A stretch of DNA of 64,000 nucleotides, taken from positions 5,612 through 69,611 of IMG/VR virus record IMGVR_UViG_3300021431_004532. One strand, written 5' to 3'. Made by a program: the position numbers and the translations under genes. Source of the stretch: a virus (taxonomy: Duplodnaviria > Caudoviricetes). Of the stretch, positions 12,458 to 53,975 are shown one piece after another (position 1 is the stretch's first letter; the number at the start of each line of letters is the position of its first letter). Below the pieces are notes generated by a model that saw only the letters and a list, made by a program, of their open reading frames with translations, searched no databases and was not told where the DNA came from.

Positions 12458-13129
12458 ATGGAATTTTTTAAGACAATCGCAGATTTTCTGCAAGACGGAC
12501 AGCAATTAAGTATTGCAATCAGGAAAAGCGGTGAGAATATCGCAGTAAGTATCTTACCTGACAATCGTGGAGTAAAAGACCAAGCAGTCAAGAATATCAC
12601 TCCACTGGTTATGAGTGGCACGGCTGAAGATTTCGAGCAGGGCTTCGAAGCTGCTCTCCAGCCTTTGGCTCAGGCTCAGGGTCTCGTTACCAATATCAAG
12701 GAGTTTGAAGAAAGCACCGAGAAAGCCAAGAAAGAGTCGGAAATGGCTAAGAAACTCAAAGACGAGGCAAGCAAGCAGAAGAAGGAGTTCAACGACCTCA
12801 TTGCCCTTGCTCGTAAGAATAAGGATGAGCATAAGTTCAAAGACGCTCGCTCCATTCTCGTCAAAGCCTCTGCCCTACCCTCTGCAGAGAAGTCTATCAT
12901 TGACAAGGTCAGCAAGGAGATTGACAGTGCTAGTGGCGTAGGCAATATGTTCGGTGGCGAGCAGGATATGAGTGACGGCAAAGATGTCGGCTCTGAGTCT
13001 ACGGAAGCACCAGCCACAACTCCTGCCCCTGACAAGAATGCTACTGAGGAAGCATTCAAAAAGGCTATGGAGCTTGAAGACGACGAGCCTGACACCAATG
13101 ACAATAACGATAACGAAGAGGAGGAATAA
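12458..13129 (+). CDS. PRTRC system protein E
   Basis: MEFFKTIA...LSIAIRK...VSILP...ITPLVMSGTAEDFEQGF N-terminus; upstream of Ub-like gene. Confidence 0.75.
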   Translation: MEFFKTIADFLQDGQQLSIAIRKSGENIAVSILPDNRGVKDQAVKNITPLVMSGTAEDFEQGFEAALQPLAQAQGLVTNIKEFEESTEKAKKESEMAKKLKDEASKQKKEFNDLIALARKNKDEHKFKDARSILVKASALPSAEKSIIDKVSKEIDSASGVGNMFGGEQDMSDGKDVGSESTEAPATTPAPDKNATEEAFKKAMELEDDEPDTNDNNDNEEEE

Positions 13130-13131
13130 GT

Positions 13132-13341
13132 ATGGCACTTAATGTAACAGGAATGAAGAGAGTGTTCAAGTATGGCAATCGAACACTTGAAGACCCAAGT
13201 AAGAATATGACACCTGACGAGGTAATGCAGTTCTATTCTGCAACCTACCCAGAACTGACCACAAGCAATGTGCATGGTCCAAAGATGGAGGGTGACAAGG
13301 CTGTCTATGAGTTCAAGACCACTGTAGGAACCAAAGGATGA
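13132..13341 (+). CDS. PRTRC system protein C (prokaryotic ubiquitin-like)
   Basis: RVFKY...LEDP...MTPDEVMQFYSATYPELTT...FKTTVGTKG ending in Gly. Confidence 0.9.
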   Translation: MALNVTGMKRVFKYGNRTLEDPSKNMTPDEVMQFYSATYPELTTSNVHGPKMEGDKAVYEFKTTVGTKG

Positions 13342-13348
13342 GTAAGCA

Positions 13349-14536
13349 ATGCAAATCAGAGGAACAGTTAACACCATTCCACAATGCCCTGTATTCAATC
13401 ATAGAGAACGAAGAGCATCAATGGTACAGAGTAAGAGAGCAGGAGCAACAGCCGTTGCTCCCTCCCTCTGCACCTCTGCTTTTCTGACACAGAAGATACA
13501 GCCTATAACATCTGACGAAAGTAAGGTGGCATTGTATGGTTTCAATGTAACTGAAACCCATAAGTGGATTGCAGGGTGTTGCAAACGCTTTCTTGAAACA
13601 ATAGGCATGAAGTATGATTACAAGTGCAATACTCGCCATACAAAGCCGATAATGCTCTTGGATATAATAGAATACTTCGAAAAGAAAATAGAGCCTCTTG
13701 GACTATCTCTCTCGATACGCAAGGAGGAAGAAGAAAATGACAACGAGGTTCTGAAATGTGTCGTCTATAGATATGGAAGTGAAATGGAATTGAGCATACC
13801 TGTCTTTTATTGTTGCCCTGCAGAATATCTGTCTCCTGAAGGAGCAGATTTGTATAAGCATTTCATCAAGTATGTATCAGACAGAACTAGGATAGACATC
13901 GGAGTTAAGGAGTATACTGATAACTATTATCTCGGTATGTTGAGTGACATTTATCAAGACACCTGTTGTCAGGAAGAAGATGACGTCCAGTTCGGTATGG
14001 TAAAGCATTACTGCAATAACGGCAAGTTCAGACCTCTGCTGGATGAGATAGATGCACTACCAGTATATGAGGGGAAATACTTTAAGACGTTACTGGAAGA
14101 ATATCGCCACAAATGCCCGTCTGAAGAGCATGATTTGGTCGAATGCATGATAGACGGCATAGATGTAGTAAAGGACCTAAACAGGCATTGGTTTGATTTT
14201 GACCCTGACAATGACGGAATGCCTAATGCCAATGGGTACGTTGAAGACGTAAACAGTTCAAGCGGTGTAATGGCATCAGCAATCCTTTACTCGGAAAATG
14301 ATGGATTGTGTGACGAAATGCTTGATATGATAAACGGAGACGCTGATTCTGGTCTTAACATCACGACATGGAATATCTGTCAGTATTTGACACCAAAGTT
14401 GAAGAAGTCACATATAAAAGAGTTCGTGAGGTGCAAGGATTTAGTGAGAGATTTCAAAGAATGGTTAGACAAGTTTTATAATGCCTCAGGTAAATTTGAT
14501 AGATATGGGGAACCTGAAGAATGTACTGAGCAATGA
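13349..14536 (+). CDS. PRTRC cassette protein (protein F position), function unknown
   Basis: 395-aa ORF between Ub-like and E2-like genes; identity from position only. Confidence 0.45.
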   Translation: MQIRGTVNTIPQCPVFNHRERRASMVQSKRAGATAVAPSLCTSAFLTQKIQPITSDESKVALYGFNVTETHKWIAGCCKRFLETIGMKYDYKCNTRHTKPIMLLDIIEYFEKKIEPLGLSLSIRKEEEENDNEVLKCVVYRYGSEMELSIPVFYCCPAEYLSPEGADLYKHFIKYVSDRTRIDIGVKEYTDNYYLGMLSDIYQDTCCQEEDDVQFGMVKHYCNNGKFRPLLDEIDALPVYEGKYFKTLLEEYRHKCPSEEHDLVECMIDGIDVVKDLNRHWFDFDPDNDGMPNANGYVEDVNSSSGVMASAILYSENDGLCDEMLDMINGDADSGLNITTWNICQYLTPKLKKSHIKEFVRCKDLVRDFKEWLDKFYNASGKFDRYGEPEECTEQ

Positions 14537-15206
14537 GTTGATAGCAACTTGTGCTTTGGTGTTCTACAAGAACAGCGTACTGAAAGGCGCCTATGTAGAA
14601 CGCAGAGAGATAAAAAATGGTGTCATGGGAGCAGGTAAGCCTCTCAATGTGGAAACACTGGCATCACTGTTAAAGACGGTAGAAAAGTTTGCAAAAGATT
14701 CCACCTCGATGGTTTCTCTTCATGGAGAGATACCAGAGAACCTTCTGTATGCAAGTACGAATATTGATACGTACAAATTGGTATGGTATAGGAAGCCTGA
14801 GAAGAGAATGCTTTATTTCTCTGATAAGTTATCGATACCGAATGGAGAAATGGAAGTGCCAGGACTTATTTATGTGGCTAACGGTTCTTCGTTGGATATG
14901 TATGCTTTCAAAGGCACCAAGCCGACCTCAAAATCAGTTTTGTATAACGCTCCGTTTTTTAACGTAGATGGCTATGTTTGTCTAGGCAACGGTAAGATGC
15001 AGAAGCCGAAGATTCAGTCATACAATAACTGGATGAAGTATTGGGAGGATATGTTTTGGAAAACGGAGTTTTCGCATATTCTTGGTGAGAATCCGATAAA
15101 AGGTAATCTTGCTCTCATAACAAAGGATTGCATACGCCACCACAAGCCGTTTCCTACCTCAGTCCTAGTGAAAACTGACAAGAAACTACAATCACTATAC
15201 AAGTAA
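14505..15206 (+). CDS. PRTRC system protein B (prokaryotic E2 family D)
   Basis: LVWYRKP...VPGLIY...LYNAPFFNVDGYVCLGN with conserved Cys. Confidence 0.85.
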   Translation: MGNLKNVLSNELIATCALVFYKNSVLKGAYVERREIKNGVMGAGKPLNVETLASLLKTVEKFAKDSTSMVSLHGEIPENLLYASTNIDTYKLVWYRKPEKRMLYFSDKLSIPNGEMEVPGLIYVANGSSLDMYAFKGTKPTSKSVLYNAPFFNVDGYVCLGNGKMQKPKIQSYNNWMKYWEDMFWKTEFSHILGENPIKGNLALITKDCIRHHKPFPTSVLVKTDKKLQSLYK

Positions 15207-15266
15207 AGATGATGTATAACAGTACAAGAGAATACAAACATGCAAAGAGATACTAAACACAGAACG

Positions 15267-16043
15267 ATGAAAAGAAAGCACTACGTTCACCAGTATATGT
15301 TAGACCCATGGCACCCATTGACTGTAGCATTGGTGGGGGTTGGTGGAACAGGTTCACAAGTTCTCACTTCGTTAGGTAGGATGAACTACGCTTTGAAACA
15401 GTTAGGTCACAATGGTCTGCACGTAACAGCGTACGATAACGACATAGTGACACCTGCAAACTGTGGCAGGCAGTTATTCTCTCCTGTAGAGGTCGGAAGG
15501 AATAAGGCTGAGGTTCTTATCAGCAAAGTTAATGCATTTTTCGGTACTGATTGGGACAGCGTTCCTAAGTTCTTCGATGAAACCACCGAACTTGCTAACA
15601 TCGTAATATCATGTGTTGATACGGTGAGTGCCAGAATGGTTATAGATAAGCGACTAAAAGAAGGCAATGTGTATTCACATATAGGAGATATGTTAAGATG
15701 CTATTATTGGCTGGACTTTGGAAATACGCAGAACACTGGTCAGGTCATATTAGGAACTGCATACGATTTCAAAGAAGACATGAAAATAAGAGGGAATGTA
15801 AGCAAGTTACGATGTGTGACAGATTTCTTCGATCTGTCTAAGGTTAATGAGAAAGACAGCGGACCAAGTTGCTCCCTTGCAGAAGCTCTGAGCAAGCAGG
15901 ATTTGTTCATCAACTCCACTCTGTCACAGATAGGCATGGCGATTATGTGGAAGATGTTCACGAAAGGTGTCCTCGAGACTCAGGGAGCGTTTCTGAATCT
16001 TGAAACAATGAAAGTAAACCCCATAAAGGTAGAGAAAGTATGA
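15267..16043 (+). CDS. PRTRC ThiF-family E1-like adenylyltransferase
   Basis: GVGGTGSQV, DNDIVTPANCGRQLF, GRNKAEVL, ISCVD, DFGN, PSCSLAEALSKQDLFIN. Confidence 0.9.
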   Translation: MKRKHYVHQYMLDPWHPLTVALVGVGGTGSQVLTSLGRMNYALKQLGHNGLHVTAYDNDIVTPANCGRQLFSPVEVGRNKAEVLISKVNAFFGTDWDSVPKFFDETTELANIVISCVDTVSARMVIDKRLKEGNVYSHIGDMLRCYYWLDFGNTQNTGQVILGTAYDFKEDMKIRGNVSKLRCVTDFFDLSKVNEKDSGPSCSLAEALSKQDLFINSTLSQIGMAIMWKMFTKGVLETQGAFLNLETMKVNPIKVEKV

Positions 16044-16373: not shown

Positions 16374-16403
16374 TATTTCAAACATTTTTTGTACCTTTGT
16401 AAA
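16374..16403 (+). promoter_or_regulatory. Class A promoter for the DUF488-tRNA-enzyme-terminase unit
   Basis: Identical to 8604-8633. Confidence 0.7.
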
Positions 16404-16420
16404 AGTTTAATAACATCATT

Positions 16421-16819
16421 ATGCAAATATATACGAGTTATTTTGCTAATTTAAGAGCATTGGGCAAAGAAGGTATAATGCCTATCAGTATTGCGAGATA
16501 TTCGCCCAAATGGTATAATGGACCACGATACACGCTGGTTTCTCCTACCAGTTACATGCTCTCGTCTTCATGCAGTCATGAGGAATACCTCAGGAAGTAT
16601 GCAGATATATTGAAGAGACTTGATGCCAAGCAGGTCATTCATGCAATCCAGACCATGGCAAACGGAAAAGATGTTGCCTTGTGTTGCTACGAGAAGCCTG
16701 GAGAGTTTTGTCATCGCCATTTACTCTCCGAATGGCTCAGGAAGAATGGCTTTGACGTCAATGAGTGGACTCCGAAAGAAACGAAGGAACAGGCTCAACA
16801 GCTTTCCCTGTTCGATTAG
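16421..16819 (+). CDS. DUF488-like protein
   Basis: IYTSYF...PISIAR...VALCCYEKPGEFCHRHLLSEWL. Confidence 0.75.
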   Translation: MQIYTSYFANLRALGKEGIMPISIARYSPKWYNGPRYTLVSPTSYMLSSSCSHEEYLRKYADILKRLDAKQVIHAIQTMANGKDVALCCYEKPGEFCHRHLLSEWLRKNGFDVNEWTPKETKEQAQQLSLFD

Positions 16820-16831
16820 GAGTTCCAAGTT

Positions 16832-16904
16832 AGAAGGTTGGCTGAGTGGATAGGCGACAGTTGAAAAAGGCTGTGTTACGATGGTTCGAGTCCGTCACCT
16901 TCTT
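16832..16904 (+). tRNA. Degenerate tRNA-like element 1 (TTGAAAA Phe-like loop in an expanded anticodon arm)
   Basis: 7-bp acceptor AGAAGGT/ACCTTCT; T-arm GATGG-TTCGAGT-CCGTC; ACAG/CTGT stem with a 10-nt loop. Confidence 0.5.
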
Positions 16905-16914
16905 CAAGACAAAG

Positions 16915-17001
16915 AGGTTAGTATCTTTTCTGCCAAAAAAGTAAAAGGAAATCGGATGTTAATGCCGATACAGAATGCAAGTTCGAGTCTTGCCTAATTT
17001 C
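16915..17001 (+). tRNA. Degenerate tRNA-like element 2 (GTT Asn-like, enlarged D and anticodon loops)
   Basis: Acceptor AGGTTAG/CTAATTT; T-arm GCAAG-TTCGAGT-CTTGC; ATCGG/CCGAT stem with a 9-nt loop ATGTTAATG. Confidence 0.4.
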
Positions 17002-17007
17002 AATGTT

Positions 17008-17078
17008 TAGCAGTTAGTTTAGCGGTAAAATACCAGATGCCTAATCTGGAGCCACGGGTTCGAATCCTGTACTGCGTC
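17008..17078 (+). tRNA. tRNA-like element 3 (loop TGCCTAA; Arg-CCT with G33, or shifted Gly-GCC)
   Basis: D-arm GTTT-AGCGGTA-AAAT; CCAGA/TCTGG stem; T-arm ACGGG-TTCGAAT-CCTGT; acceptor only 5 bp. Confidence 0.55.
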
Positions 17079-17099
17079 CTAATTCTACTAACAGACAAT

Positions 17100-17174
17100 G
17101 CGGAGATAGCTCAGTAATGTAGAGCGCTATCAGTTCCATGATAGAGGTCGAAGGTGCGGGTCCTTCTCTCCGCT
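17100..17174 (+). tRNA. tRNA-Gly(TCC)-like element with 8-nt anticodon loop and altered T-loop
   Basis: Perfect acceptor GCGGAGA/TCTCCGC; GCTC/GAGC D-stem; CTATC-AGTTCCAT-GATAG; T-loop TGCGGGT. Confidence 0.6.
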
Positions 17175-17194
17175 CTATAGTAAATCAGAATCCT

Positions 17195-18271
17195 ATGAAA
17201 GTTTCGGTAATTGGAGCAGGAAATGTCGGTGTCGCTATAGCAGCCGACTTATCTATTAGAGGTCATGAGGTCACCTTGATTAAGACCTCAGGCAAAAAAT
17301 CAGAGTCTTTTGAGAGACTGAAAATGAATGGCAACCGTGTGTATCTCAAAGAAGACGGTAAGTACACAGAGACTGTCATACACGAAGTGACACAAGAGTT
17401 GTCAAAGGTTTCTTTGGCAGATGTAGTAATTGTGACCATACAGAGTTCTTATCACGAACCGTTGTACAAGAAGATGGCTAAGTATCTAAAGAGTGAGCAG
17501 ACGGTGCTCATTATCTGCAGTTACATGTCATCTTTTTATTTGGTAAGAGAAAGTGTCAAGTGTAATGTCATGCCAGTCATTGCAGAGGCAACAGGTCCTT
17601 ACCTCGAGGGGCGTGTAGAGTTGAAAGACAAACCCAGCGAGGTTGTTTTTCGTGTCGGCTGCAGGCTGACAAGAAGCCCTTTGTCTGTTTTCCAGAAGGA
17701 GCGTGCTGACGAATGTATGGCAAAACTAAAATCGCTGTATGAGGGATTGAGCAACGATTACTCCTACATAGAGTCAGCCTTGCTTAATCCGAACCTTGTG
17801 ATACACACCGTAGGAGCAATCATGAGCATTCCACGCATAGAGTACAGCGAGGGAAACTTCTGTATGTATCGTGAGGCATATTGTCATAAGAACGAGGCAA
17901 CGATAAAAGTAATGCTCCAGTTAGATGAAGAGAAGAAGAAAGTGTTGAAACACCTAGGAGGCAGACCTATTGACATCATGGAGGCTGGCGGTTTCCTCAA
18001 AGGCATGGAGAGCTTCTATGAGTATTCAGAGTCAGAAGACAGAGCTATCAGTCCCACCTCTATTCACTCAAGGTATATCACGGAAGATGTGTCGCAAGGC
18101 TTGGTTTTACTCGAGAGCATAGCAAAAACGATAGGCATCGCTACACCTATTACTACTTCGCTGATAGACCTTGCTGGTTGTGCGTTAGGTGAAGATTTTC
18201 GCAAAGAAGGTCGTACTATTGAACGACTAAACGCTGCAAAAGTAATCGTAAATATGTTTAAGTACGAATGA
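17195..18271 (+). CDS. NAD(P)-dependent opine (octopine/nopaline) dehydrogenase family protein
   Basis: Rossmann VIGAGNVG; ALLNPNLVIHTVGAIMS and RYITEDVSQGLV motifs of the opine-DH C-terminal domain. Confidence 0.85.
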   Translation: MKVSVIGAGNVGVAIAADLSIRGHEVTLIKTSGKKSESFERLKMNGNRVYLKEDGKYTETVIHEVTQELSKVSLADVVIVTIQSSYHEPLYKKMAKYLKSEQTVLIICSYMSSFYLVRESVKCNVMPVIAEATGPYLEGRVELKDKPSEVVFRVGCRLTRSPLSVFQKERADECMAKLKSLYEGLSNDYSYIESALLNPNLVIHTVGAIMSIPRIEYSEGNFCMYREAYCHKNEATIKVMLQLDEEKKKVLKHLGGRPIDIMEAGGFLKGMESFYEYSESEDRAISPTSIHSRYITEDVSQGLVLLESIAKTIGIATPITTSLIDLAGCALGEDFRKEGRTIERLNAAKVIVNMFKYE

Positions 18272-20343
18272 ATATAGGAGAAGACTTAAAAAGCAGGACC
18301 TTTGGCATAGAGATTGAAATGTGCAATCTTGACAGGCAGTTGGTAAAGTTGCCTGATGGTTTCTCCTGGAGTAAAGATGAGGAAATCGTAAACACTGACG
18401 GGTCATGTAACAAACGATTTGGTGGAGAGGTTAATACCCCTCCACTCTGTGTTTACAGTATGAATGATCTGCACAACCTGAAAGCGTGTTATGAATCTAT
18501 GAAGGAGGCAGGAGGCGTGATAAAATGGACTACCTATACTCACGTCCATATCTATGCAGGTGATTTGTCAGTAGAGCAGATAAAAAAGGTGTGGCTGTTC
18601 TTCTATATCTGCTATCCTTGGTGGAAGAGATACACGAAGCTTTCCGATTGGGATGAGAAGGTGTTCAACTGCCAGCCTTTGCCGACAGAGAAATACTATA
18701 ATGGTCTGATTGAGGCTGAGACCTATGAGGACATCAACAAACTGTTCACGAACCAGTCAAAGAAAGGATTTATAAGACATGCCTGCAATATCTCTGCGTA
18801 CTTCAAGACGAAGACGATAGAGTTCAGGACATATCATGGCACGAGCGATTTCAGGGAGGCGATGAACTGTGTCCTTTCGTCGTATCGATTGTTCTACTAT
18901 GCAATAAATCATGATTTAGAAGACTTCAAATCAATTTCCTCCTATGAGCAATTTTTGCATGTTACAAAGCTCAAATACGAGTGTCCTAGAGAGTTAATTC
19001 CCCTCCTTTATCAAGGAAACCCCTATAGTGCGATAGAGACGTTCCAGACCAAATCTCTGCCGTATAATTCGAAGCAGGCATCAGCCTTATGGGAGGCTAT
19101 CAAGAATCACGGGCATAAGGAGTTGTGTATTGTTAATGGCTTTATGTACTACTATGAGTTATTCTTCATGGAGAAGGTGAAGTTGACGATTTATGCTCAA
19201 GACGCTTATTGTCATTTACTATGGATGATTGCCAATGGTAAGGTAACTCTCAAGTATAAAGAGAAACTGTCATGGTTGGAGGATTATAACAATGACACTC
19301 CTGCAAGACAACTGGCACTGGCACTCTATGCAGAGAAATTGCAGAAATTCTCCATGAGCGAATCAGACAGAAATGATGCTGTCCTGGAGTCTGTCAAGAT
19401 ACGTGCAAGAGAGTCTATCGAGAAGACGGAGAAAGGCAGTGAGCGCCTTTTGAAACTGCTGACTACTTGCGAATATCACGTGGGAACCCTGCAAGATGCC
19501 ATACCAAAAGAGAAAGTGATATTCTTCAATTATGGCAAGGATAAGACACAGAAACGCACGTTCAAACTGATAGTTGAGAACAGCGATTTGGAAATGGAGT
19601 TCAACGTGAAACGTAATGATTACTATGAAGTAATCGAGACGCTTCCGAAAGACTCTTTCTTCTACTATTTCAGCAATAGCCCGTATTTGAGTAATATGCA
19701 CAAATTGGCTATGTGGAATTCCTCAAAGGGAGAACGTTGGTCCGCAGGCAGGTTCCTTTATTGCAATAAGCCTAGCAACAGTAATCAGGTCAGCACGTCA
19801 TATAAATCTAGTCACGTCGAGGTCAATGAAATTGTTCCTCCAGACGAACTGGTTATTGACAATGCAAACAGTCTTAAGATAGCAAGGGTTGACTCTGATG
19901 TATTATATGCCTTGCAGAAGAAGTATATTCGAAAGGTTGATATGGTCAGTCACTGCACCTATGCGTTTGTTGTGATGTATGAGAAGTACACACTGGGAGG
20001 GTTCGGTTTCACGCTACCTCAGCACAAAGGTTATGACCTATTCCAGTTGACTGATTTCTGCACGAATAACAATGTGCCGAGACTCGCTAAGTTTATCCTG
20101 CTTTGCATTCAGACTGCAGAAGTACAGAAGGTGTTAAGTAGGCGTATGCACAAGTTATGTGAGAAGGTGATTTCCTGCGCCTATACACACAAGCCAGTCT
20201 CCATGAAGTATCGTGGTGTCTATACGAAAGTGAAGGAACACTGCACATCATCATATCTGGCTTATGAAGGTCAGTTAGGCAAATATGCTAGCAACAAAGA
20301 AGTAATAGAGAAATATCAAAAAATGTTGAAGAATGGAAATTGA
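18268..20343 (+). CDS. Fusion: amidoligase (COOH-NH2 ligase type 2) + degenerate MTase-like region + C-terminal GNAT/Mom-like domain
   Basis: RTFGIEIE, GEVNTPPL, THVHI, KTIEFRTYHGT in the N-terminal ~220 aa; C-terminal GGFGF...LTDF...PRLAKFIL...THKPVSMKYRGVY recalled from phage GNAT-like proteins. Confidence 0.7.
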   Translation: MNIGEDLKSRTFGIEIEMCNLDRQLVKLPDGFSWSKDEEIVNTDGSCNKRFGGEVNTPPLCVYSMNDLHNLKACYESMKEAGGVIKWTTYTHVHIYAGDLSVEQIKKVWLFFYICYPWWKRYTKLSDWDEKVFNCQPLPTEKYYNGLIEAETYEDINKLFTNQSKKGFIRHACNISAYFKTKTIEFRTYHGTSDFREAMNCVLSSYRLFYYAINHDLEDFKSISSYEQFLHVTKLKYECPRELIPLLYQGNPYSAIETFQTKSLPYNSKQASALWEAIKNHGHKELCIVNGFMYYYELFFMEKVKLTIYAQDAYCHLLWMIANGKVTLKYKEKLSWLEDYNNDTPARQLALALYAEKLQKFSMSESDRNDAVLESVKIRARESIEKTEKGSERLLKLLTTCEYHVGTLQDAIPKEKVIFFNYGKDKTQKRTFKLIVENSDLEMEFNVKRNDYYEVIETLPKDSFFYYFSNSPYLSNMHKLAMWNSSKGERWSAGRFLYCNKPSNSNQVSTSYKSSHVEVNEIVPPDELVIDNANSLKIARVDSDVLYALQKKYIRKVDMVSHCTYAFVVMYEKYTLGGFGFTLPQHKGYDLFQLTDFCTNNNVPRLAKFILLCIQTAEVQKVLSRRMHKLCEKVISCAYTHKPVSMKYRGVYTKVKEHCTSSYLAYEGQLGKYASNKEVIEKYQKMLKNGN

Positions 20344-21043
20344 AGACAGATGGAAATACGAAAAGGTTGATATAGACCTCATTGATGAAGCAGAGCTTAA
20401 TGCCAACGAAATGAGTGCAGAAGACTTTGCTACTCTTTGTGAAAATATAGGTTTGTCTGGATTGAGCAGCGTGCCATGTTGCTACAAGAAAGCGAATGGT
20501 AGGTTCGGTATGATCAGCGGACATCACAGATGGAGAGCCTGCAAGAAGAACCACTTTTTGAAGATAGGCATCCTGTGGGTTGATGAAAGTGACCTCACAG
20601 AAGATGAAAAGATAGCTATCCAGTTATCTCATAACTCTCTGCATGGAGAGGACAATATGAGTATTCTGAAAATTCTGTTCGGAAAGATACAGAATATAGA
20701 TTTCAAGAAGTTTGCTCACATCAATATTGACGAAGTCGCTCCTATCAGCACTGAGGGTATTAGCGTCTATGCCTTGAAGGAGAATTTTGTGTTCACGATA
20801 GTGCTCTACCCTAACTCGTTTGAGAACTTAGACGAGTTATATGGTGACATCAGAGAGCAAGCAAAGAAATGTGATGCTCTTGTGCTTGCTGATGATACAA
20901 ACGAATTGCCTTTGCTGAAGCTACAGCAGGACATAGGCAGTCAGTTTAATATTAAGTCTCCGTCTATCACGTTTGCCAAACTTCTGGAATTAGCAAGGGA
21001 AAGACTGGATGAAATAAAGGTCAAAAAGGAGAAAAAGGAATGA
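20333..21043 (+). CDS. ParB/Srx-like N-terminal domain protein
   Basis: NANEM...ISGHHRWRA...IAIQLSHNSLHGED. Confidence 0.8.
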   Translation: MEIEDRWKYEKVDIDLIDEAELNANEMSAEDFATLCENIGLSGLSSVPCCYKKANGRFGMISGHHRWRACKKNHFLKIGILWVDESDLTEDEKIAIQLSHNSLHGEDNMSILKILFGKIQNIDFKKFAHINIDEVAPISTEGISVYALKENFVFTIVLYPNSFENLDELYGDIREQAKKCDALVLADDTNELPLLKLQQDIGSQFNIKSPSITFAKLLELARERLDEIKVKKEKKE

Positions 21044-21924
21044 TTTGGACGATAGTAAGCAAGGCAGAAATGGAGGGCTATAGCATCCCGCCAGTATTCC
21101 AGTATTACAGGGAGGTGATAGGCAGGGAGAATATCAGGCTGGCTGTAGTGGACGAGAATGACCCTCTTGATTTCGTCATGGAGAATGATATAGTTCTGCT
21201 CCGTACTGCAAGCAAGAACCTCATTGAAACGATAGAGAGAAAGGGTGTTGCTACAACTGCTGAACACTACTCTGTATATCAGCAAGCAAGTGACAAGGCA
21301 GAGTTGAGCAGGTTCCTCTTTGAGCATGGCATCAATGTGCCAATGCAGCATAAAATAGAGGACATAGAGGACGGAAGGATATACTTTGTCAAGCCACGAT
21401 TTGGCAGTGAGAGCTTCGGCATTACGGAACATAATATATGCTACAGCAAGGAAGAAGTCAGGTTTCAGGTCAAGCGTCTGCAGGTACTCGGCTATGATAG
21501 TGTTATAGAGGATTTCATCGATGGCAATGATGCGACTGTAGCCTGCTATTTCAACCCAGAGACCAAAATAGTGCATGCCCATGCTATTGCAGTTGACTGT
21601 GAGACAAAGGGAGCCATTCAGACACACGAAGGAAAGTTCGACTATAACGAATACTGCTATGCCTTGAAAGGTTCGGAATGGAAGAAAGTATGTGCAATGA
21701 GCAGGGAGGTGTTCTGGCTGCTCGGCATCAAGCACCATGCAAGGATAGACTTTCGCTTCACTAAGAATGGCAATGTGTATCTCATTGATGTGAATCTGTT
21801 GCCTGGTCTTGGACCATCAGCGCATTTCTCGAAGTGTTTGCTCTTGACGGAGAACATCTCCTATAAGGACACAATCCTGAATATTTTGAAATCATCAAGA
21901 GGACAGATATGGCAAAGAACATAG
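21040..21924 (+). CDS. ATP-grasp ligase (D-Ala-D-Ala ligase-like)
   Basis: YFVKPRFGSESFGI, IEDFIDG, ARIDFR, YLIDVNLLPGL. Confidence 0.85.
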   Translation: MIWTIVSKAEMEGYSIPPVFQYYREVIGRENIRLAVVDENDPLDFVMENDIVLLRTASKNLIETIERKGVATTAEHYSVYQQASDKAELSRFLFEHGINVPMQHKIEDIEDGRIYFVKPRFGSESFGITEHNICYSKEEVRFQVKRLQVLGYDSVIEDFIDGNDATVACYFNPETKIVHAHAIAVDCETKGAIQTHEGKFDYNEYCYALKGSEWKKVCAMSREVFWLLGIKHHARIDFRFTKNGNVYLIDVNLLPGLGPSAHFSKCLLLTENISYKDTILNILKSSRGQIWQRT

Positions 21925-22247
21925 ATATTGAAGATGTTGTTAAAATGTATGAGAAGAAAGGTTGCAATGTGACTGCAACCTGTGCTGCTCTTGGCATAAA
22001 TCGTAAGACCTTTTACGATTGGAAAGCAAAGAAGAAGAAACTTGCAGAAGCCCTGGATGATGTGGACGAGTCCATTCTTGACTGGGCAGAAAGCAAGTTA
22101 AAGGAGCATATTGATAATGATGATCTGCAGGCTTTGATATTCTTTCTCAAGACCAAAGGAAAGAAACGAGGCTACGTAGAGAAGCAGGAAATTGATGCTA
22201 ATATCAATCAGTTCGAGAAACTTATGCAAGAGACTGACGACGAATAG
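21909..22247 (+). CDS. Terminase small subunit (HTH)
   Basis: ATCAALGINRKTFYDWK HTH, LIFFLKTKGKKRGYVE; directly upstream of TerL. Confidence 0.75.
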   Translation: MAKNIDIEDVVKMYEKKGCNVTATCAALGINRKTFYDWKAKKKKLAEALDDVDESILDWAESKLKEHIDNDDLQALIFFLKTKGKKRGYVEKQEIDANINQFEKLMQETDDE

Positions 22248-22250
22248 AAC

Positions 22251-23762
22251 ATGGTTCCAGCAGACAAGAGACAGAAGAAAATGCGAGCGTGGCGCAACGA
22301 TTGGTGTTTATTCGCCAAAGAAGTGCTTCACGCTCGTCTTGATGAAGAACAAAAGGCTATCCTGCGTGCAGTTCAAAATGAACGTATGGTAGCTGTTGCT
22401 TCGGGCACTGCTCGAGGCAAGGACTTCATTGCTGCTGTTGCTTGTCTTTGTTTCATGTACCTCACTCCTCGTTGGAAAGACGGAAAGCTGATCGGCAATA
22501 CTAAGATTGCCATGACAGCGCCTACGGACAGACAGGTAAGAAATATCATGGTTCCAGAGGTAAGACGACTGTTCAAGTCTGCAGGTGTACTGCCTGGCCG
22601 ATTGGTCGGTTATGATATAAGAACGAATTACGAAGAATGGTTTTTGACAGGCTTCAAATCAAGCGCTGATAATACTGAGGCTTGGTCAGGCTTTCATGCG
22701 GTGAATACTATGTTTGTAGTTACTGAGGCATCTGGTATCTCGGAAACGATATACAATGCCATAGAGGGTAACTTGCAGGGTAATTCACGATTGCTGATAG
22801 TGTTCAACCCCAATGTCACAACTGGCTATGCAGCCAAAGCCATGAAATCTTCACGCTTCAAGAAATTCAGGCTAAACTCCCTACATGCAGAGAATGTAAT
22901 AAGCAAGAGAAACGTAATCCCTGGTCAGGTGGATTATGAGTGGGTGAAGGATAAGGTGGAGAACTGGAGTATTTCAATCAGTGAAGATGACAGGAACGAA
23001 GGAGAGGGCGATTTCAAGTGGGAAGGTCGGTGGTACAGACCTAATGACCTTTTTCGTGTCAAAGTGTTGGGAATGTTTCCTAAGGTGGCAGAAGACGTGC
23101 TGATACCATATGAATGGGTAGAGCTCGCCAATATAAGGTGGAAGGAAATGCAGGAAGAAGGATTTGAGCCAAAGAAGAAATGCCGTCTTGGTGTCGATGT
23201 CGCTGGCATGGGAAGAGACTCTTCGGTGCTTACACCTAGATACGGAAACTATGTTGGAGAGTTTGAAGTTCATAACTCTGCTGGAAAGGCAGACCACATG
23301 CACGTTGCAGGTATGACTGTGCCTTACCTCAAACAGAAAGGCGTCAAAGTTTTCATAGATACAATCGGTGAGGGTGCTGGAGTATTCTCCAGATTGCAGG
23401 AATTGAAATACAGCAATGCTTATTCTTGCAAATTCTCAGAGAGTGCAAAAGGGTTGCATGATGTCACAGATGTATATACTTTCTCTAATATGAGAGCATA
23501 CCTGTATTGGGCTGTCAGGGACTGGCTGAATCCGAAGAACGGATTTAACCCTGCATTGCCACCAAATGATTTGCTGATGCAGGAATGTACTGATATACAC
23601 TGGAAATTTCAAAGTTCAGGAGATATTATCATGGAGTCGAAAGATGAGATTAAAAAGCGATTAGGGCGGTCTCCAGACTATTTCGATTCGCTTGCCAATA
23701 CATTCTACCCAAGAAATTATGAAGAGATACAAGAGAGCGAATTGTTCAAAGATTTCTTGTAG
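22251..23762 (+). CDS. terL: Terminase large subunit
   Basis: SGTARGKD Walker A-like, VTEASG Walker B, nuclease GVDVAGMGRD, SPDYFDSL. Confidence 0.9.
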   Translation: MVPADKRQKKMRAWRNDWCLFAKEVLHARLDEEQKAILRAVQNERMVAVASGTARGKDFIAAVACLCFMYLTPRWKDGKLIGNTKIAMTAPTDRQVRNIMVPEVRRLFKSAGVLPGRLVGYDIRTNYEEWFLTGFKSSADNTEAWSGFHAVNTMFVVTEASGISETIYNAIEGNLQGNSRLLIVFNPNVTTGYAAKAMKSSRFKKFRLNSLHAENVISKRNVIPGQVDYEWVKDKVENWSISISEDDRNEGEGDFKWEGRWYRPNDLFRVKVLGMFPKVAEDVLIPYEWVELANIRWKEMQEEGFEPKKKCRLGVDVAGMGRDSSVLTPRYGNYVGEFEVHNSAGKADHMHVAGMTVPYLKQKGVKVFIDTIGEGAGVFSRLQELKYSNAYSCKFSESAKGLHDVTDVYTFSNMRAYLYWAVRDWLNPKNGFNPALPPNDLLMQECTDIHWKFQSSGDIIMESKDEIKKRLGRSPDYFDSLANTFYPRNYEEIQESELFKDFL

Positions 23763-23799
23763 TTTTTTGGTGGAATACGAAAAAATGCTTAACTTTGCA

Positions 23800-28081: not shown

Positions 28082-28449
28082 TGGCACCAATCATCACATT
28101 AGAGAAGTTTGAATTTGAAGAAAGTAGGTATCACAGAGGCGATAAAGGATGGTTAGCTACAACCCTACTTAAAGCCGTTAGAGACCAAAACCTTGAAGCC
28201 TTTGATTACCCTGTTGCTGCATACGATATGAGCAATAGGAATTTCAGCCTCGAGAACATGGACGATTTCTGTTGGCAGGTAAGAAGAACCCTCGCTGCTG
28301 ACTATGAGACCTACCCTATAATACTAGACGATTTAGGTCAGGTGGCAGACGGAAATCACAGAATATGCCATGCTATCATAGACGGTGTAACTACTGTGAA
28401 AGCCTATCGTCTTCAGTATATGCCTAAACCTGATTTTGTTGACAATTAA
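28081..28449 (+). CDS. Short ParB-like domain protein
   Basis: YPIILDDLGQVADGNHRICHAI. Confidence 0.65.
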   Translation: MAPIITLEKFEFEESRYHRGDKGWLATTLLKAVRDQNLEAFDYPVAAYDMSNRNFSLENMDDFCWQVRRTLAADYETYPIILDDLGQVADGNHRICHAIIDGVTTVKAYRLQYMPKPDFVDN

Positions 28450-28453
28450 AGAC

Positions 28454-30190
28454 ATGGCAAAGCCTAAAGGTATCAATCAGAAAGCAAAGTACAGAGCGCA
28501 CTCTATCCGTATGGCGAAATATGTGGGTAGGGTGCAGTCTGTTTATGATACCTTAAACGAAGAGATAGCCAGTTCTGTTGTCAAGACGTCTTATGACGGA
28601 ACCAAGCCTTTTCGGTTCTCTGACTACCCAGTTACAAAGAAAAAGTTTGATGAAGTACAGGCGGCATTTGTAAAAGACTTGCGTGCTGTCATAGAACGTG
28701 GGACAAGTGAAGAATGGAAGGAGAGCAATCTTGTTCAGGACCTTCTTGCAGATAAGGTTTTGAAATTCTATGGAGCTAAGGTGAGAGGAAAGAAGCACCG
28801 TGTCTATTACCAGACTAACAGCGACGCACTGAAAGCTTTCCAGAAACGTAAGGACAAAGGTCTTGGATTGTCTGAAAGGCTGTGGAACCAGTCTAAGGAT
28901 TATAAGGAGGAAATGGAGTATGCGATTTCCTCTGCAGTGGAGAAAGGAACCAGTGCAGTCAAGCTGAGCAAGAGGCTGAGCAAGTACCTCACAGACTACC
29001 CTACCCTCAAGAAAGACTACAAGGAGAAGTTCGGAAGGGCAGTGAATTGTCATGACTGTGAGTATAGGAGTATGCGTCTTGCACGCTCCGAAATCAATAT
29101 GGCATATCGTTCTGCAGAGCAGGAAAGGTGGAAGCAGTTTGATTTCGTGCTGGGATATGAAGTGAAACTGACTCAGAATGGTAAGCATAAGCCTGACATC
29201 TGTGATGACCTTGCTGGTAAGTACCCAAAGGATTTCGTGTTTCTCGGCTGGCACCCAAATTGTATGTGCTATGTAATTCCAATTCTAAAGACTGAGGAAG
29301 AATTCTGGGGTGAGAAGGAGGCGGTGCCAGTTAACGATGTCCCAGACGGAATGAAGGATTGGTTGTATGCGAACTCAGAACGCATAACGGATGCAGAAAA
29401 AAAAGGCACTTTGCCGTACTGGATCAGTGATAACAGCGACATTATAAGAGCCGGAAGCATTATTGATTCACCAGTCATCCCTGTCGCTAAGCCTGTTGAC
29501 AACCCTATCGATATGATAGGAAGGATGCGGTCAGATTATGCAGAAAAATGCAAGATAGAGGGAGCGTTTAATATTAGTAGAATATTGCCCAACTTTAACT
29601 GGGAAGAATGGGTGTCCGATTATGAGAAGCTTCTGGAAGACTATGATTGCACACTAAGCCGCTTCACCATAAAGGACGGGTTCGGACAGAGTGTGGACGC
29701 ATACCTGTTCGGGAAATACAAAGGTCAAGAGTTTTATATTCAAAGAACGTTCGTGCGATCAGAAGATAAGTTAATTGCAAAGCATGATAGAATGGAGTTG
29801 CCAGAAGAGTTACAAGGAAGAGGGTTCTGTAAAAGATTTTTAGCGAACTCCTACAAACAATATGTTGCGGCAGGGATTGATGAAATATCATTAGTGGCCA
29901 ACATTACGGTAGGAGGATATTGTTGGGGGAAATATGGTTTCTATACTGACAGATCAAGCGCCCTTGGTGTTGCTATAAAAGACGAGGCAAACCCTGTATC
30001 GAAAGTGATGAAGGGTGTAATTGATGCCTTCTATAGTTCGCATAAAGAGGATGAGCTGTTCCCAATGAGGCTGCTTTCAGATATAGAAGGGGCAAAAGAA
30101 TATATGATGGGTGCGAAATGGTTTGGAGAATTGAACATCAAAGACAAGGCGAAATCCCAAACCTTCATAGAATATTTATTTGGAAAGTGA
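28454..30190 (+). CDS. Minor head (MuF/SPP1 gp7-like) protein with C-terminal GNAT-like extension
   Basis: RLARSEINMAYR, ICDDLAGKYPK, GWHPNCMC; C-terminal LPEELQGRGFCKRFL...VANITVGGYCWGKYGF. Confidence 0.8.
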   Translation: MAKPKGINQKAKYRAHSIRMAKYVGRVQSVYDTLNEEIASSVVKTSYDGTKPFRFSDYPVTKKKFDEVQAAFVKDLRAVIERGTSEEWKESNLVQDLLADKVLKFYGAKVRGKKHRVYYQTNSDALKAFQKRKDKGLGLSERLWNQSKDYKEEMEYAISSAVEKGTSAVKLSKRLSKYLTDYPTLKKDYKEKFGRAVNCHDCEYRSMRLARSEINMAYRSAEQERWKQFDFVLGYEVKLTQNGKHKPDICDDLAGKYPKDFVFLGWHPNCMCYVIPILKTEEEFWGEKEAVPVNDVPDGMKDWLYANSERITDAEKKGTLPYWISDNSDIIRAGSIIDSPVIPVAKPVDNPIDMIGRMRSDYAEKCKIEGAFNISRILPNFNWEEWVSDYEKLLEDYDCTLSRFTIKDGFGQSVDAYLFGKYKGQEFYIQRTFVRSEDKLIAKHDRMELPEELQGRGFCKRFLANSYKQYVAAGIDEISLVANITVGGYCWGKYGFYTDRSSALGVAIKDEANPVSKVMKGVIDAFYSSHKEDELFPMRLLSDIEGAKEYMMGAKWFGELNIKDKAKSQTFIEYLFGK

Positions 30191-37045: not shown

Positions 37046-37118
37046 CACGGAGTAGAGCAGTTGGTAGCTCGCTACGCTCATAACGTAGAGGCCGTAGGTT
37101 CGAATCCTGCCTCCGTAA
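37046..37118 (+). tRNA. tRNA-Met(CAT), initiator-like
   Basis: Full cloverleaf; C1xA72 mismatch; loop CTCATAA; no encoded CCA. Confidence 0.9.
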
Positions 37119-37120
37119 CT

Positions 37121-50400: not shown

Positions 50401-51990
50401 CGTGCTGACTCTGCTATACAGCGTCTGTTCGACTTCGTATTCAACTGTCACCCTGACTTCATCGGTTACAAGTCTAAGAATGGCGTCATCAGCGAAACAA
50501 ACAGCATTATAACAGTGCTGGGAGAGAACAGAACGGATAACGCTAACTACCGTCGCCAGAAGTTCTATGCGGAAATGGGTAACTACATGGTGAAGGATTC
50601 TATCACTTTCAACGCATTCGTAACGAAGGTGCTTCTGTGGACTGACCAGCGTGCCAAGAACCAGTTCTTCACCCACTATGCAGGTGACGAGGTAGTGAGT
50701 GCATACACCGATGACCTGAATACTGCTGGCGAGACATACGAGATACTGCGTCTGCTGCCTTACGACATAGACACCTCTCTGCGTGGCGACAATGCTTCCC
50801 GTCTGCGTTATGATTTCACTCGTCTCTACAATGATGCGGACGTGTACAACGATACCGTAGGCGTGACGACTATCAGTGACGAGTTCTATCCTTCTCAGCA
50901 GGCTATCGCCAACCCTCAGGAGTTTATCGCTAACCGTGTCATGGGTAAGCGTTCTGCTCTCTTCGAGCTGCTTGACGCTACCTGCCAGTCTGAATATGCT
51001 ACATACTTTGCTCTCCTTGCAGCAGGTTACCTGAATGTGGAGGCACTGAAGAAGTATTGCATAACAGACGAGGCGGAAGCATACAACTCCGTGGTGTACA
51101 ATGCCGATACAGAGTACAAGTACATTGCCAGTGGCTCATCTTCAGACCAGAAGAAGGCTCACGGCTCTGCTAAGGAAGACCTGCTGTGGTGGCTCAAAGG
51201 ACGTATGTACTTCATGGGTGGCGAGAATGGCGCTGGCGATTTCATCGGTTCAAGCATACGTGCTACGATGTGCCAGGACAGTGTGCTGACACAGGCTGGC
51301 GTACCTCTGACTATGCGTATTCCTGCTGGTGCTAATGGCATCACTCTGAGTATCAAGAGCCGTGTACGTAACTATATCGGTACGAAGCTCGGTTCTACTG
51401 GTGCTCTCGCTAAGCAGTATGCTCCTGACCCTTCACAGTATTATGACGTTACACTGGTGACACAGGGTATCGGCAACGAGGACGCTGGTCGCTTCAATAT
51501 CTACGGTCATCTGTTCTTCGACGATGTGGCTGACTTCTCCAGAATGTTCATTGCGTCTATCACAGACTGGGGCGGTTGCACCACCTTAAAGACAATGAAG
51601 TTCGGTGACGATGCAGAAGGATTCAAGAACCCTGCACTGACTGATATCATGGGTAGCGGAAATCCTGTCTTTGGTGCATGTGAACTGCTCGACCTCCGTA
51701 ACTGCGTGGCGTATGCTGAGAGTAACTTTGTTTGCTTCCCTGCTGCCAAGACTATCCTGCTGGAGGGCTGTGACAGTCTGGACGGTATGGAGCTGCCAAG
51801 TACGGATAACCTGCAGGTGCTCTCTCTGCCTAAGAATATTCGCACTCTGAGACTGAAGAACAAGACGAAGCTGGCTACTCTCACACTGGAACAGGGTGGT
51901 GACCTTACGGCTGTGGACTGCGAGAATATCAGCAACACTACTGCGGCTGCGGTATTGGGCGTTTTGGAACAAATCTATAACAATCAATAA
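47416..51990 (+). CDS. Giant tail-associated protein: LamG-like + CotH-kinase-like + leucine-rich repeats
   Basis: RIQGTSTAMEYRKN, DQRAKN, LLPYDIDTSL (CotH-like); C-terminal LLDLRNC/ILLEGCDSL/LQVLSLP LRRs. Confidence 0.65.
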   Translation: MAKKITITGTDLLQTVSDDWGGKNNGSTPITKYDTEIPAGAEWGMNRGEVERFLKEQFGTKAGAFHMDSGYLYVFATVTDKEAWILEPDDKYVLDKVKLPEGGDTPSDSLVIYSVDNTQYYKKGAQSVNIKFKVRNIVDGEQSGDISVKLTNAQGVVLYQATRPVADENDFYTIPLQGSQLKNIANASETVTLRVDRTGEERYVTRNLSMFCIELGLELHSAYNFGVANPANISYVPTFTLPQGITNIRLVVDVYQSASQVFKHFETSSIVTNNRVVLPLDWSDLPFSGVYMAKAYLDMNYGMIQSEVVETPLFAIVSGEEDSTQLVAIEPINDVTLYDEVTPRIAVYNNGETSAVIDIVLNGGTHTQLEVMTARVNTEYTMVAEQANNVLVVQIMEEGEPVTGTSVEFTATGSFNWQTIGGYEQNLTAKGRSNNELPTPANWGGITTFNDFSWSEGGSCWKDGALHLTGGASAIVGITPFFSTTPYDQQRNIGGGILDTGRTLRIRFKVSNICSTAARLIECFDGNVGFFVTPETIYVKMGNSGEITTDPDNGPQATQNNRHFSPDEYIELCVTVQPYWDESYRLTGHFATMYVNGQFAGEAILSNTSLSQESALPLTLRAVGCDLDVSQITYYEKCLDSFDVLQNFVMALGSLEEMKEAFEKNQCYTGNGTVNFNESFKYCCALSAKLPADAVEGSCNLIVNTHEFDPAVTDTDAYPTGQQELELFFFRNGDVDTSRSVKYVGENTKDLRVRIQGTSTAMEYRKNMRYDCKGTVKVYRWSRELYEAGGSINPSDGWYYVEDKTKLAIFMRGDATTEKACTLLTTKTNYNESTATRNLPMARWIDDAMRYLATVRDGNNNLMFPQLLTPPQKADASGAVRQAIDGLPAIQFTHAVGSQDYRFTGKVDLITDKKNAGVFGFAKNGPYNSDSPVEHPDYSIEFRNGNTDVCNFRCPSLLKAGKYMDASFTTRGQDCLEYRWPDLDAGDTYYGDAHLRADSAIQRLFDFVFNCHPDFIGYKSKNGVISETNSIITVLGENRTDNANYRRQKFYAEMGNYMVKDSITFNAFVTKVLLWTDQRAKNQFFTHYAGDEVVSAYTDDLNTAGETYEILRLLPYDIDTSLRGDNASRLRYDFTRLYNDADVYNDTVGVTTISDEFYPSQQAIANPQEFIANRVMGKRSALFELLDATCQSEYATYFALLAAGYLNVEALKKYCITDEAEAYNSVVYNADTEYKYIASGSSSDQKKAHGSAKEDLLWWLKGRMYFMGGENGAGDFIGSSIRATMCQDSVLTQAGVPLTMRIPAGANGITLSIKSRVRNYIGTKLGSTGALAKQYAPDPSQYYDVTLVTQGIGNEDAGRFNIYGHLFFDDVADFSRMFIASITDWGGCTTLKTMKFGDDAEGFKNPALTDIMGSGNPVFGACELLDLRNCVAYAESNFVCFPAAKTILLEGCDSLDGMELPSTDNLQVLSLPKNIRTLRLKNKTKLATLTLEQGGDLTAVDCENISNTTAAAVLGVLEQIYNNQ

Positions 51991-51991
51991 T

Positions 51992-53662: not shown

Positions 53663-53700
53663 CATTTTAATAATAGTAATATATAAAGGTAGATTGGGTG

Positions 53701-53817
53701 AGGTTGCTGCACGTCGGCAGTAATGCGAATAACGGCTCGTTGTGCGGTCTGTCGGCTTCGAACGCGAATAATCCGTTCTCGAACTCGAATGCGAATTACG
53801 GTGCTCGTCTGAAATTC
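53701..53817 (+). ncRNA. DGR template repeat (TR)
   Basis: 200 bp downstream copy of the VR; 25 adenines; nine in-frame AAY codons. Confidence 0.97.
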
Positions 53818-53975
53818 ATCTATAAAAAGCAAGCAAAACACCCATGTGAACCTCGCAACTGGGAGGTAGTGATACCGAACATGCGAAAGATAAATGCAAT
53901 CCTCAATGAGAGGGACGTGCAAGTAGGGTAACACTGAAAGCTCGTAGCATGAAGATGAAAGCCTAAGGCAAAGCG

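Follow-up and report, generated by a model that had tools for sequence, protein, structure and literature searches.

Organization of the locus

The 64,000-nucleotide window, i.e. the whole stretch of DNA that was analysed, belongs to a rumen-type, Prevotella-like phage, and all features described here lie on its forward strand. At the head of the operon, as the earlier note had it, is a gene for a rhodanese/phosphatase-like DUF488-N3a protein with conserved C-x-E...CHR (16421..16819; Pfam PF22751, E 1e-11). Four tRNA-like elements, an opine dehydrogenase (ODH) gene, a gene for a three-domain fusion protein, a ParB-like gene and an ATP-grasp gene follow, and the terminase small subunit (terS, 21909..22247; PHROG 309) and large subunit (terL, 22251..23762; PHROG 2) complete the series. 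All open reading frames and the overlapping stop and start codons reported earlier were found: ATGA overlaps join ODH to the fusion gene (18268-18271) and the ParB-like gene to the ATP-grasp gene (21040-21043), the 3' end of the fusion gene overlaps the ParB start (20333-20343), the ATP-grasp/terS overlap spans 21909-21924, and 3 nt separate terS from terL.

The promoter placed previously at 16374-16403 is partly borne out. A Bacteroidota -7 box, TAnnTTTG, lies inside it (16392..16399) and recurs in relatives: of 43 distinct ones, 37 have it no more than 100 nt ahead of DUF488, mostly at -24 to -31. The -33 box is weak. At this site the -7 box alone matched, not the complete Bacteroidota -33/-7 pattern, and a scan for E. 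coli-type sigma70 promoters did not recover it. RNA-library contigs from two studies overlap parts of the operon (22/30 and 7/30 bins), but they show neither transcription nor its level, and one sample is possibly the source.

The order of the operon is repeated in about 90 Bacteroidota phage loci, and comparison of gene neighbourhoods confirmed that the genes travel as one unit beside terS-terL. DUF488-N3a is missing from about half (34/80) of the loci that have no amidoligase.

An atypical tRNA-Gly

Three of the four tRNA-like elements listed in the earlier note pass Rfam (at 16832, 17010 and 17100), while the fourth (16914..17002), with an enlarged D arm and a 9-nt anticodon loop, received no Rfam call and is recognized by its fold and its homologues: it folds cloverleaf-like, with a z of only -1.8, and is conserved in relatives L003-L005 and L007. 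The first element (16832..16905; ARAGORN; Rfam 36 bits) has an enlarged anticodon loop. The element at 17008..17079 (Rfam from 17010) is without U33, and its anticodon position differs between relatives (cct, gct, gat, gtt), which is why an identity as tRNA-Arg was dropped.

The last element had been listed, but its probable role as acyl donor was overlooked. It is an atypical tRNA-Gly (17100..17175; Rfam 45.6 bits; cloverleaf fold; family statistics) with UCC in an 8-nt loop. Glycyl-tRNA synthetase (GlyRS) recognizes an identity set of G1-C72, C2-G71, C35, C36 and U73. These elements are present, with G1-C72, C2-G71, G3-C70 and U73 at the acceptor end. The T-stem, on the other hand, lacks G51-C63 and carries A51-U63, a weak EF-Tu form, the T-loop begins UGC, the D-loop is without GG, and CCA is not encoded. 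A51-U63 marks the non-proteogenic tRNA-Gly of S. aureus (PMC7826273). Judged by these positions, the element keeps the marks for charging, is without those for translation, and is a probable non-translational glycyl donor.

The same features are found among relatives. G51-C63 occurs in none of 50 distinct tRNAs, compared with all eight host Prevotella tRNA-Gly copies, and is retained by two distant tRNAs; 23 of the 50 have the UGC T-loop, and position 34 is unconstrained (ACC 18, TCC 14, CCC 11, GCC 2, 8-nt loop 5). About 80 of 89 Bacteroidota-type loci, many of them near-identical, have a Gly-like tRNA within 450 nt upstream. Among distant amidoligase-less loci it was found in 18 of 72, against about 1.1 expected, with further ones downstream of ParB; most distant loci have no tRNA-Gly close by in this relaxed scan, whose false positives (L004) and misses (L059, L089, L130, L186) make the counts approximate. 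The tRNA-Gly immediately precedes the core gene in mycobacteriophage Argie, cultured cluster W mycobacteriophages are among the relatives with such a tRNA ahead of the Dam-like/GNAT gene, and an unannotated one is present in the Gordonia phages Clawz and Sting. In FP_Brigit the slot holds a tRNA-Lys, and other tRNAs occupy it in four close relatives without a tRNA-Gly: L002, L004, L007 and L001, whose genome is complete and 89% identical.

The core fusion protein and its ParB-like partner

The amidoligase/GNAT fusion reported earlier contains both of these domains, but a third domain, of the Dam fold, had been missed between them. The 691-aa product of 18268..20343 (Pfam; AlphaFold pLDDT 87; VIA-align; motifs) consists of a GCS2-type amidoligase (aa ~1-240), a Dam-fold domain (~263-502) and a Mom-fold GNAT (~530-672), with Pfam matches to Amidoligase_2 (E 9e-14), DAM-like-phage2 (7e-95) and GNAT-phage-like (2e-40); the latter two score 316 and 138 bits against a cut-off of 27, and ParB is adjacent. 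The amidoligase domain matches YbdK in structure (VIA-align, Z 11.0), has the GCS2/COOH-NH2 amidoligase fold with the metal/ATP residues ExE...E...HxH...R...ExR, and keeps E15, E17, E54, H94, R170, E185 and R187 invariant or nearly so among homologues. It is joined in one chain to Dam-GNAT over a wide range of divergence, and the fused form was not found in any cultured phage among those searched.

The middle domain matches EcoDam (VIA-align, Z 10.6, 181 aligned), and neither methylase motif I FxGxG nor motif IV (D/N)PPY is present: in their places stand VNGFM and FNYG, which differ from one homologue to another. Going by these motifs, the domain is methylase-dead. For the GNAT domain, Mu Mom ranked first of 999 chains (VIA-align, Z 11.4, rmsd 2.9, 135 aligned) and again first of 48,161 (Z 10.8), with a lead over ordinary acetyltransferases of less than 1 Z unit, which effectively ties it with other GNATs. 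The Mom-like character assigned earlier has a counterpart in structure but none in sequence: hhalign gave a probability of 0.2%, there was no PF25680 match at E 0.1, and no significant hhalign alignment was obtained that would place the essential R111, S124 and R151 of Mom. The family conserves D596 and SMKYRG instead, and PDB sequence searches with the family profiles returned no matches.

The assignment of a ParB gene beside the terminase was upheld (20333..21043; PHROG ParB-like 1e-9; ParB_N match weak, E 0.002). A ParB-like gene follows the fusion gene in nearly all loci, including 79 of 80 distant ones. The core, consisting of tRNA-Gly, Dam-like/GNAT and ParB, occurs without amidoligase, ODH or ATP-grasp, and stands alone in hundreds of loci.

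Interchangeable cassettes

The ODH gene (17195..18271; PF02317 Octopine_DH, E 8e-29) encodes a protein with the Rossmann GxGxxG, the Octopine_DH domain and the His/Asp pair of NAD(P)-dependent opine dehydrogenases, and matches PDB 1bg6 (E 4e-15), in agreement with the earlier assignment. H204 and D298 are kept in 56 of 56 homologues. The corresponding pair is the catalytic one in 1bg6. A longer ORF starting at 17138 was rejected because this start falls inside the tRNA. The ATP-grasp gene (21040..21924), likewise confirmed, encodes a Ddl-like ligase (PF07478 Dala_Dala_lig_C, E 2e-14) with conserved K118, R235, D237, D250 and N252; it misses the NCBIfam cut-off for D-Ala-D-Ala ligase proper (49 bits vs 243-246) and is placed in the ATP-grasp superfamily only. 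From their residues, ODH, amidoligase and ATP-grasp look catalytically intact.

The five-enzyme combination put forward in the earlier note is not the unit: the core stands without amidoligase, ODH and ATP-grasp, and the latter two are exchanged. ODH and ATP-grasp are one swappable accessory cassette. At least five cassettes were seen: ODH with ATP-grasp, ATP-grasp alone, one with a lysine-ketoglutarate reductase (E 5e-35), one with a KamA lysine aminomutase, and one with a racemase-like protein and a small GNAT acetyltransferase. ODH and lysine-ketoglutarate reductase represent two folds for one reaction type. All amidoligase-fused loci whose context is complete have a cassette, against 0 of 80 amidoligase-less loci, as counted by BLAST, which remote enzymes could escape; the members of the amidoligase class belong for the most part to a single lineage, and this contingency therefore reflects few independent events. 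The ATP-grasp subtype follows the presence of ODH (one change on the ATP-grasp tree vs three on the core tree), and between loci L034 and L018 identity is 94-100% for core and terminase but 37% for ATP-grasp. Screening the amidoligase for residues that vary with ODH presence yielded one uninformative position.

Proposed mechanism and alternatives

Mom modifies N6 of adenine in double-stranded DNA using Gly-tRNA-Gly (PMC13219725). By analogy glycine, rather than an opine, is therefore likely to be the first donor. DNA is the most likely target, and probably the true one, because the fusion combines a DNA-recognition domain of the Dam fold with a GNAT that in structure best matches Mom. We see an even chance that the locus carries out tRNA-primed glycylation of phage DNA with amidoligase extension by a cassette-made amino acid. 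Modification would be post-replicative, act on the phage's own DNA and be expressed together with the packaging genes. Host glycyl-tRNA synthetase would charge the phage tRNA-Gly, which would bind poorly to EF-Tu and ribosomes and so form a private pool, for which host tRNA-Gly could substitute. The methylase-dead Dam-fold domain would then hold DNA and present a base, which is probably adenine; the GNAT would move the glycyl group onto the exocyclic amine of this base as in Mom, with the ParB-like protein as putative activator; ParB activates a different phage DNA-modifying enzyme (PMC13229309). In a third step the fused amidoligase may use ATP to link the glycyl amine, carried by tRNA or by DNA, with a carboxylate. 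The cassette would finally make or tailor the second unit: ODH would condense an amine and a 2-oxo acid reductively, and ATP-grasp would add a further amide bond. Thymidine hypermodification offers a precedent for glycine first and swappable tailoring later (PMC8989533). Capping of the glycyl amine is a chemical problem, because the free glycyl amine of Mom's product rearranges and an acylated N6 is unstable.

A broader view, to which we give somewhat less than an even chance, is that of a modular assembly line for peptide- or opine-like side chains on the bases of DNA. A Gly-tRNA reserved for this use, outside translation, would prime the base, the fused ATP-dependent amidoligase would lengthen the chain, and phages would exchange the source of the monomers. 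The monomers would, equally tentatively, be an opine, saccharopine, beta-lysine, a D- or N-acetyl amino acid and a dipeptide, and the DNA chemistry would keep changing.

Other explanations are conceivable. The core may make a Mom-like glycine adduct on DNA while amidoligase, ODH and ATP-grasp are merely co-regulated and act on free peptide, opine or protein. This would agree with the hundreds of loci that have the core alone and with the free small molecules that ODH and Ddl-like ligases usually use. It is nevertheless unlikely: the amidoligase shares a chain with Dam-GNAT over wide divergence, and the cassettes are restricted to the fused form and swapped chemistry for chemistry. A target in RNA or in protein, be it of the virion, the terminase or a host factor, with the Dam fold just tethering the enzyme to DNA, is a decidedly unlikely reading, even though GNATs that use tRNA have proteins and tRNA among their targets too, and peptide tagging is known for amidoligases and ATP-grasps; Dam fold, Mom-first GNAT, ParB and terminase linkage together make the pattern of phage DNA modification.

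The earlier note proposed that an opine or peptide-like acyl donor is built and transferred, which in its direct form, with a cassette-built donor used by the GNAT and the tRNAs as incidental cargo, now seems quite improbable. All enzymes are kept in close relatives without tRNA-Gly, and the array in the window contains several unrelated tRNA-like elements, but a tRNA-Gly that has lost its translation marks adjoins the gene in phages of Bacteroidota and of Actinomycetota and in environmental phages, whether cassettes are present or not, and no obvious CoA ligase is among the operon's enzymes.

It is very improbable that the operon remodels the peptides of host peptidoglycan as Fem proteins do, in order to exclude superinfection or to control lysis. 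The best-known non-proteogenic tRNA-Gly do supply Fem transferases, and the cassettes include Ddl-like and racemase-like enzymes; however, the one GNAT is joined to a DNA-binding fold, the same core is found in hosts whose walls differ greatly, and the top 50 structural matches contain no Fem protein, which does not decide the matter by itself. It is just as hard to credit that the middle domain has adenine methylase activity of an atypical kind and yields a methyl mark or methyl-primed adduct, since despite its Dam fold and an FPP(T)Y conserved in the amidoligase-less class (interrupted by inteins in two proteins), the amidoligase-fused class has a freely varying FNYG at the motif IV position and no motif I.

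Significance and comparison with known systems

If tRNA-primed glycylation with amidoligase extension is correct, tRNA-dependent DNA modification would no longer be confined to Mom but would be the work of a widespread family that takes in common gut and rumen Bacteroidales phages, and at least five so far unknown modified bases are predicted. Orphan tRNA-Gly genes of phages, among them the sole tRNA of the mycobacteriophages in cluster W, would also gain a function. The cultured phages Argie, Taptic, Clawz and Sting give access to the minimal core, and Prevotella lysogens such as Prevotella vespertina A2879 and Prevotella sp. KH2C16, with ODH and ATP-grasp, to the extended form.

The claim of an undescribed pathway holds in part. 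Literature searches, whose coverage did not extend to Burroughs & Aravind 2023, found no account of the operon, of its link to tRNA-Gly or of the exchange of cassettes, but the core architecture is already curated in Pfam. The locus is a member of the neighbourhoods of DAM-like-phage1/2 (PF22555/PF22556), GNAT-phage-like (PF22559) and DUF488-N3a (PF22751), families that are predictions without an assigned reaction. These phage models presumably derive from Burroughs & Aravind 2023, who reportedly predicted viral nucleic-acid-modifying systems around DUF488.

ParB-dependent phage T-dioxygenases (PMC13229309) likewise combine a ParB-like gene with a DNA-modifying enzyme near the terminase, but their catalytic partner is a different one and the activator role of the ParB-like protein is putative here. 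The S. aureus tRNA-Gly NP1-3 (PMC7826273) also retain the GlyRS marks and have the weak EF-Tu T-stem pair A51-U63; they are, however, chromosomal and feed Fem peptidoglycan transferases, whereas the tRNA described here is phage-borne and free at position 34. In the thymidine hypermodification of phages M6, ViI and PaMx11 (PMC8989533) glycine also goes onto DNA first, tailoring enzymes are swapped, and amidoligases are mentioned as uncharacterised neighbours, but those systems use free amino acids, a 5-hmdU kinase and aGPT-Pplase2 on another base, without tRNA or GNAT transferase. Mu Mom (PDB 8bv8; PMC13219725) shares the GNAT fold, as the top structural match, the late phage locus and the link to glycine-tRNA. 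In contrast to Mom, a single enzyme that works with host tRNA, the present system has a fusion with Dam-fold and amidoligase domains, a ParB partner, its own atypical tRNA-Gly and cassettes.

The phage and its operon

The window (64 kb out of a 69.6-kb virus record) derives from a temperate Bacteroidales phage: an integrase is encoded at 62786-64000, its nearest named relatives reside as prophages in Prevotella and other Bacteroidales, and animal gut metagenomes contain the DNA. The ORFs and overlapping stop/start junctions described in the earlier note are present as stated, and family searches assign the products to DUF488-N3a (16421-16819), an opine dehydrogenase (ODH, 17195-18271), a fusion of Amidoligase_2, DAM-like-phage2 and GNAT-phage-like domains (18268-20343), a ParB-like protein (20333-21043), a Ddl-like ATP-grasp enzyme (21040-21924), terS and terL. 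The operon observation is real. In a gene-neighbourhood comparison, 80 viral loci and 13 genome loci keep the arrangement DUF488 - tRNA(s) - [ODH] - fusion - ParB - ATP-grasp next to terS. Three of the four claimed tRNA-like elements pass Rfam and the fourth only folds similarly, while the promoter placed at 16374-16403 holds a Bacteroidota -7 box (16392-16399) and no E. coli-type site; 37 of 43 relatives have this box upstream of DUF488 as well. A second Bacteroidota-type promoter match (23766-23797), immediately past terL, precedes a variable run of small ORFs 5' of the portal gene. Directly 5' of the operon lies a PRTRC-type cassette (PRTRC_E, prokaryotic E2 family D, ThiF; 12458-16043), retained in the closest relatives only.

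Elsewhere lies a diversity-generating retroelement (53501-55343). The first copy of its 111-nt repeat (53501-53611) sits at the end of ORF 51896-53662; the second (53701-53811) has adenine at the 11 positions where the two disagree and is otherwise identical. A reverse transcriptase comes next. A head-morphogenesis-like ORF 3' of the portal gene (28436-30190), with no Pfam match, has a C-terminal extension with a GNAT-like QGRG motif.

An atypical tRNA-Gly

In the loci that keep this gene order, the tRNA in the operon slot is nearly always Gly. That of the window (17100-17175) has a glycine acceptor stem, U73, an 8-nt loop holding UCC, the pair A51-U63 and a UGC T-loop, and its D-loop is without GG. 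A scan found tRNA-Gly in about 80 of 89 loci, many of them near-identical gut phages. Among the 50 distinct sequences, all of which have C35-C36 and U73 because the search required them, all four bases occur at position 34 (ACC is commonest), 23 have the UGC T-loop and none has G51-C63, a pair present in all eight host copies of two Prevotella genomes. In S. aureus a weak 51-63 pair diverts tRNA-Gly from EF-Tu (PMC7826273).

The link between tRNA-Gly and the Dam-like/GNAT gene extends far beyond Bacteroidota. Mycobacteriophage Argie carries a tRNA-Gly immediately 5' of an amidoligase-less Dam-like/GNAT gene, plus ParB; in the equivalent slot of Gordonia phages Clawz and Sting (L095, 6133-6206; L097, 2767-2840) lie unannotated Gly-like tRNAs with broken, degenerate T-loops and differing anticodons, missed by ARAGORN and GenBank annotation; and a Gly-like tRNA occurs within 400 nt upstream in 18 of 72 distant loci (about 1.1 expected). 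It is absent from four close relatives, among them a complete genome, most distant loci are without one nearby, and Faecalibacterium phage FP_Brigit has in its place a canonical-looking tRNA-Lys(CTT) (L096, 4639-4715), just 5' of its Dam-like/GNAT gene; the tRNA is therefore helpful, not required. A tRNA-independent donor, the reading of the earlier note, would accommodate the four close relatives; it is an unlikely rival, with the recurrence of tRNA-Gly against it. A SAM synthetase is also encoded near the FP_Brigit gene.

Three non-Gly tRNA-like elements of the window (16832-17079) have enlarged loops or are without U33, and loci L001-L007 hold a variable tRNA array there (Asn, Met, Ser, Lys, Arg); elements of this kind might act against host tRNA nucleases, as decoys or as replacements. 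An isolated tRNA-Met(CAT) lies among tail genes (37046-37119).

The fusion protein

The AlphaFold model of the fusion is confident (pLDDT 87). Structural alignment matches its three parts to different enzymes: YbdK/glutamate-cysteine ligase for residues 6-243 (Z 11.0), E. coli Dam for 264-502 (Z 10.6) and, at rank 1, Mu Mom for 530-672 (Z 11.4). Modelled alone (pLDDT 96.7), the GNAT domain again has Mom as top match among 48,161 chains, with a lead over ordinary acetyltransferases of less than one Z unit. Pfam, PDB profile search and hhalign found no sequence similarity to Mom, and by this measure the locus is outside the Mom family. The metal/ATP residues of the amidoligase are invariant or nearly so in homologues down to 21% identity. 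The Dam domain is without motifs I and IV, and our reading is therefore that it binds DNA and presents a base. An atypical methylase, which would agree with the Dam fold and less readily with the missing motifs, is an unlikely rival reading; the FP_Brigit subclass may use a different donor or be an active methylase. In two proteins of the amidoligase-less class (P0161, P0233) the Dam-like domain has intein-like insertions directly behind its FPP(T/Y) motif, which suggests that this site is functionally constrained in that class.

Interchangeable cassettes

The ODH is nearest to Arthrobacter opine dehydrogenase 1bg6, and His204/Asp298 are kept in 56 of 56 homologues. Some relatives are without ODH and have another ATP-grasp subtype; ODH presence or absence requires one change on the ATP-grasp tree versus three on the core tree, and some locus pairs with 94-100% identity in core and terminase share only 37% in ATP-grasp. 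In more distant amidoligase-fused loci, ODH and ATP-grasp are replaced by a lysine-ketoglutarate reductase (another fold, the same reductive condensation of amine and 2-oxo acid), by a KamA-type aminomutase, or by a racemase-like protein (weak match, E 2e-4) with a small acetyltransferase. A cassette is present in every amidoligase-fused locus with full context and was found by BLAST, of limited sensitivity, in none of 80 amidoligase-less loci (53 with ample flanks). This suggests, albeit from few independent events, that the cassettes work for the amidoligase. A DUF4417-like protein (PHROG 940) fills the ODH slot in one locus (L068, 6274-6999) and lies 3' of terS in another (L265).

Proposed mechanism

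Most likely, the Dam-GNAT core would glycylate a DNA base with glycine from Gly-tRNA, as Mom transfers glycine from Gly-tRNA-Gly onto N6 of adenine (PMC13219725). The ParB-like protein would be its activator, for which there is precedent (PMC13229309), and the amidoligase would extend the glycyl adduct through its amine, adding an amino acid that the cassette produces or tailors. We give this complete scheme an even chance. A cassette product independent of the core's DNA adduct is the closest rival; the occurrence of the core without amidoligase or cassette would suit it, and the confinement of cassettes to amidoligase-fused loci would not. DNA is probably the target; a protein or RNA target would sit less well with the Dam-fold domain. 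Cell-wall remodelling, an unlikely reading, would suit the Ddl-like ATP-grasp. Acylated N6 is known to be unstable and the Mom rearrangement depends on the amine, so that the final adduct structure is not predictable.

Comparison with known systems

Pfam already curates the fusion's domains as phage DAM-like and GNAT-like, models that stem from a 2023 paper which reportedly predicted viral nucleic-acid-modifying systems centred on DUF488. Literature searches, whose coverage did not extend to that paper, found no description of the operon, the tRNA or the cassettes. Glycine first and swappable tailoring later is an established order in thymidine hypermodification, with enzymes unrelated to those of the window (PMC8989533). 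With Mom the locus would share its working mode but not its sequence family, and Mom draws on host tRNA whereas the locus brings its own tRNA-Gly. The main addition to these systems is cassette interchange tied to the amidoligase.
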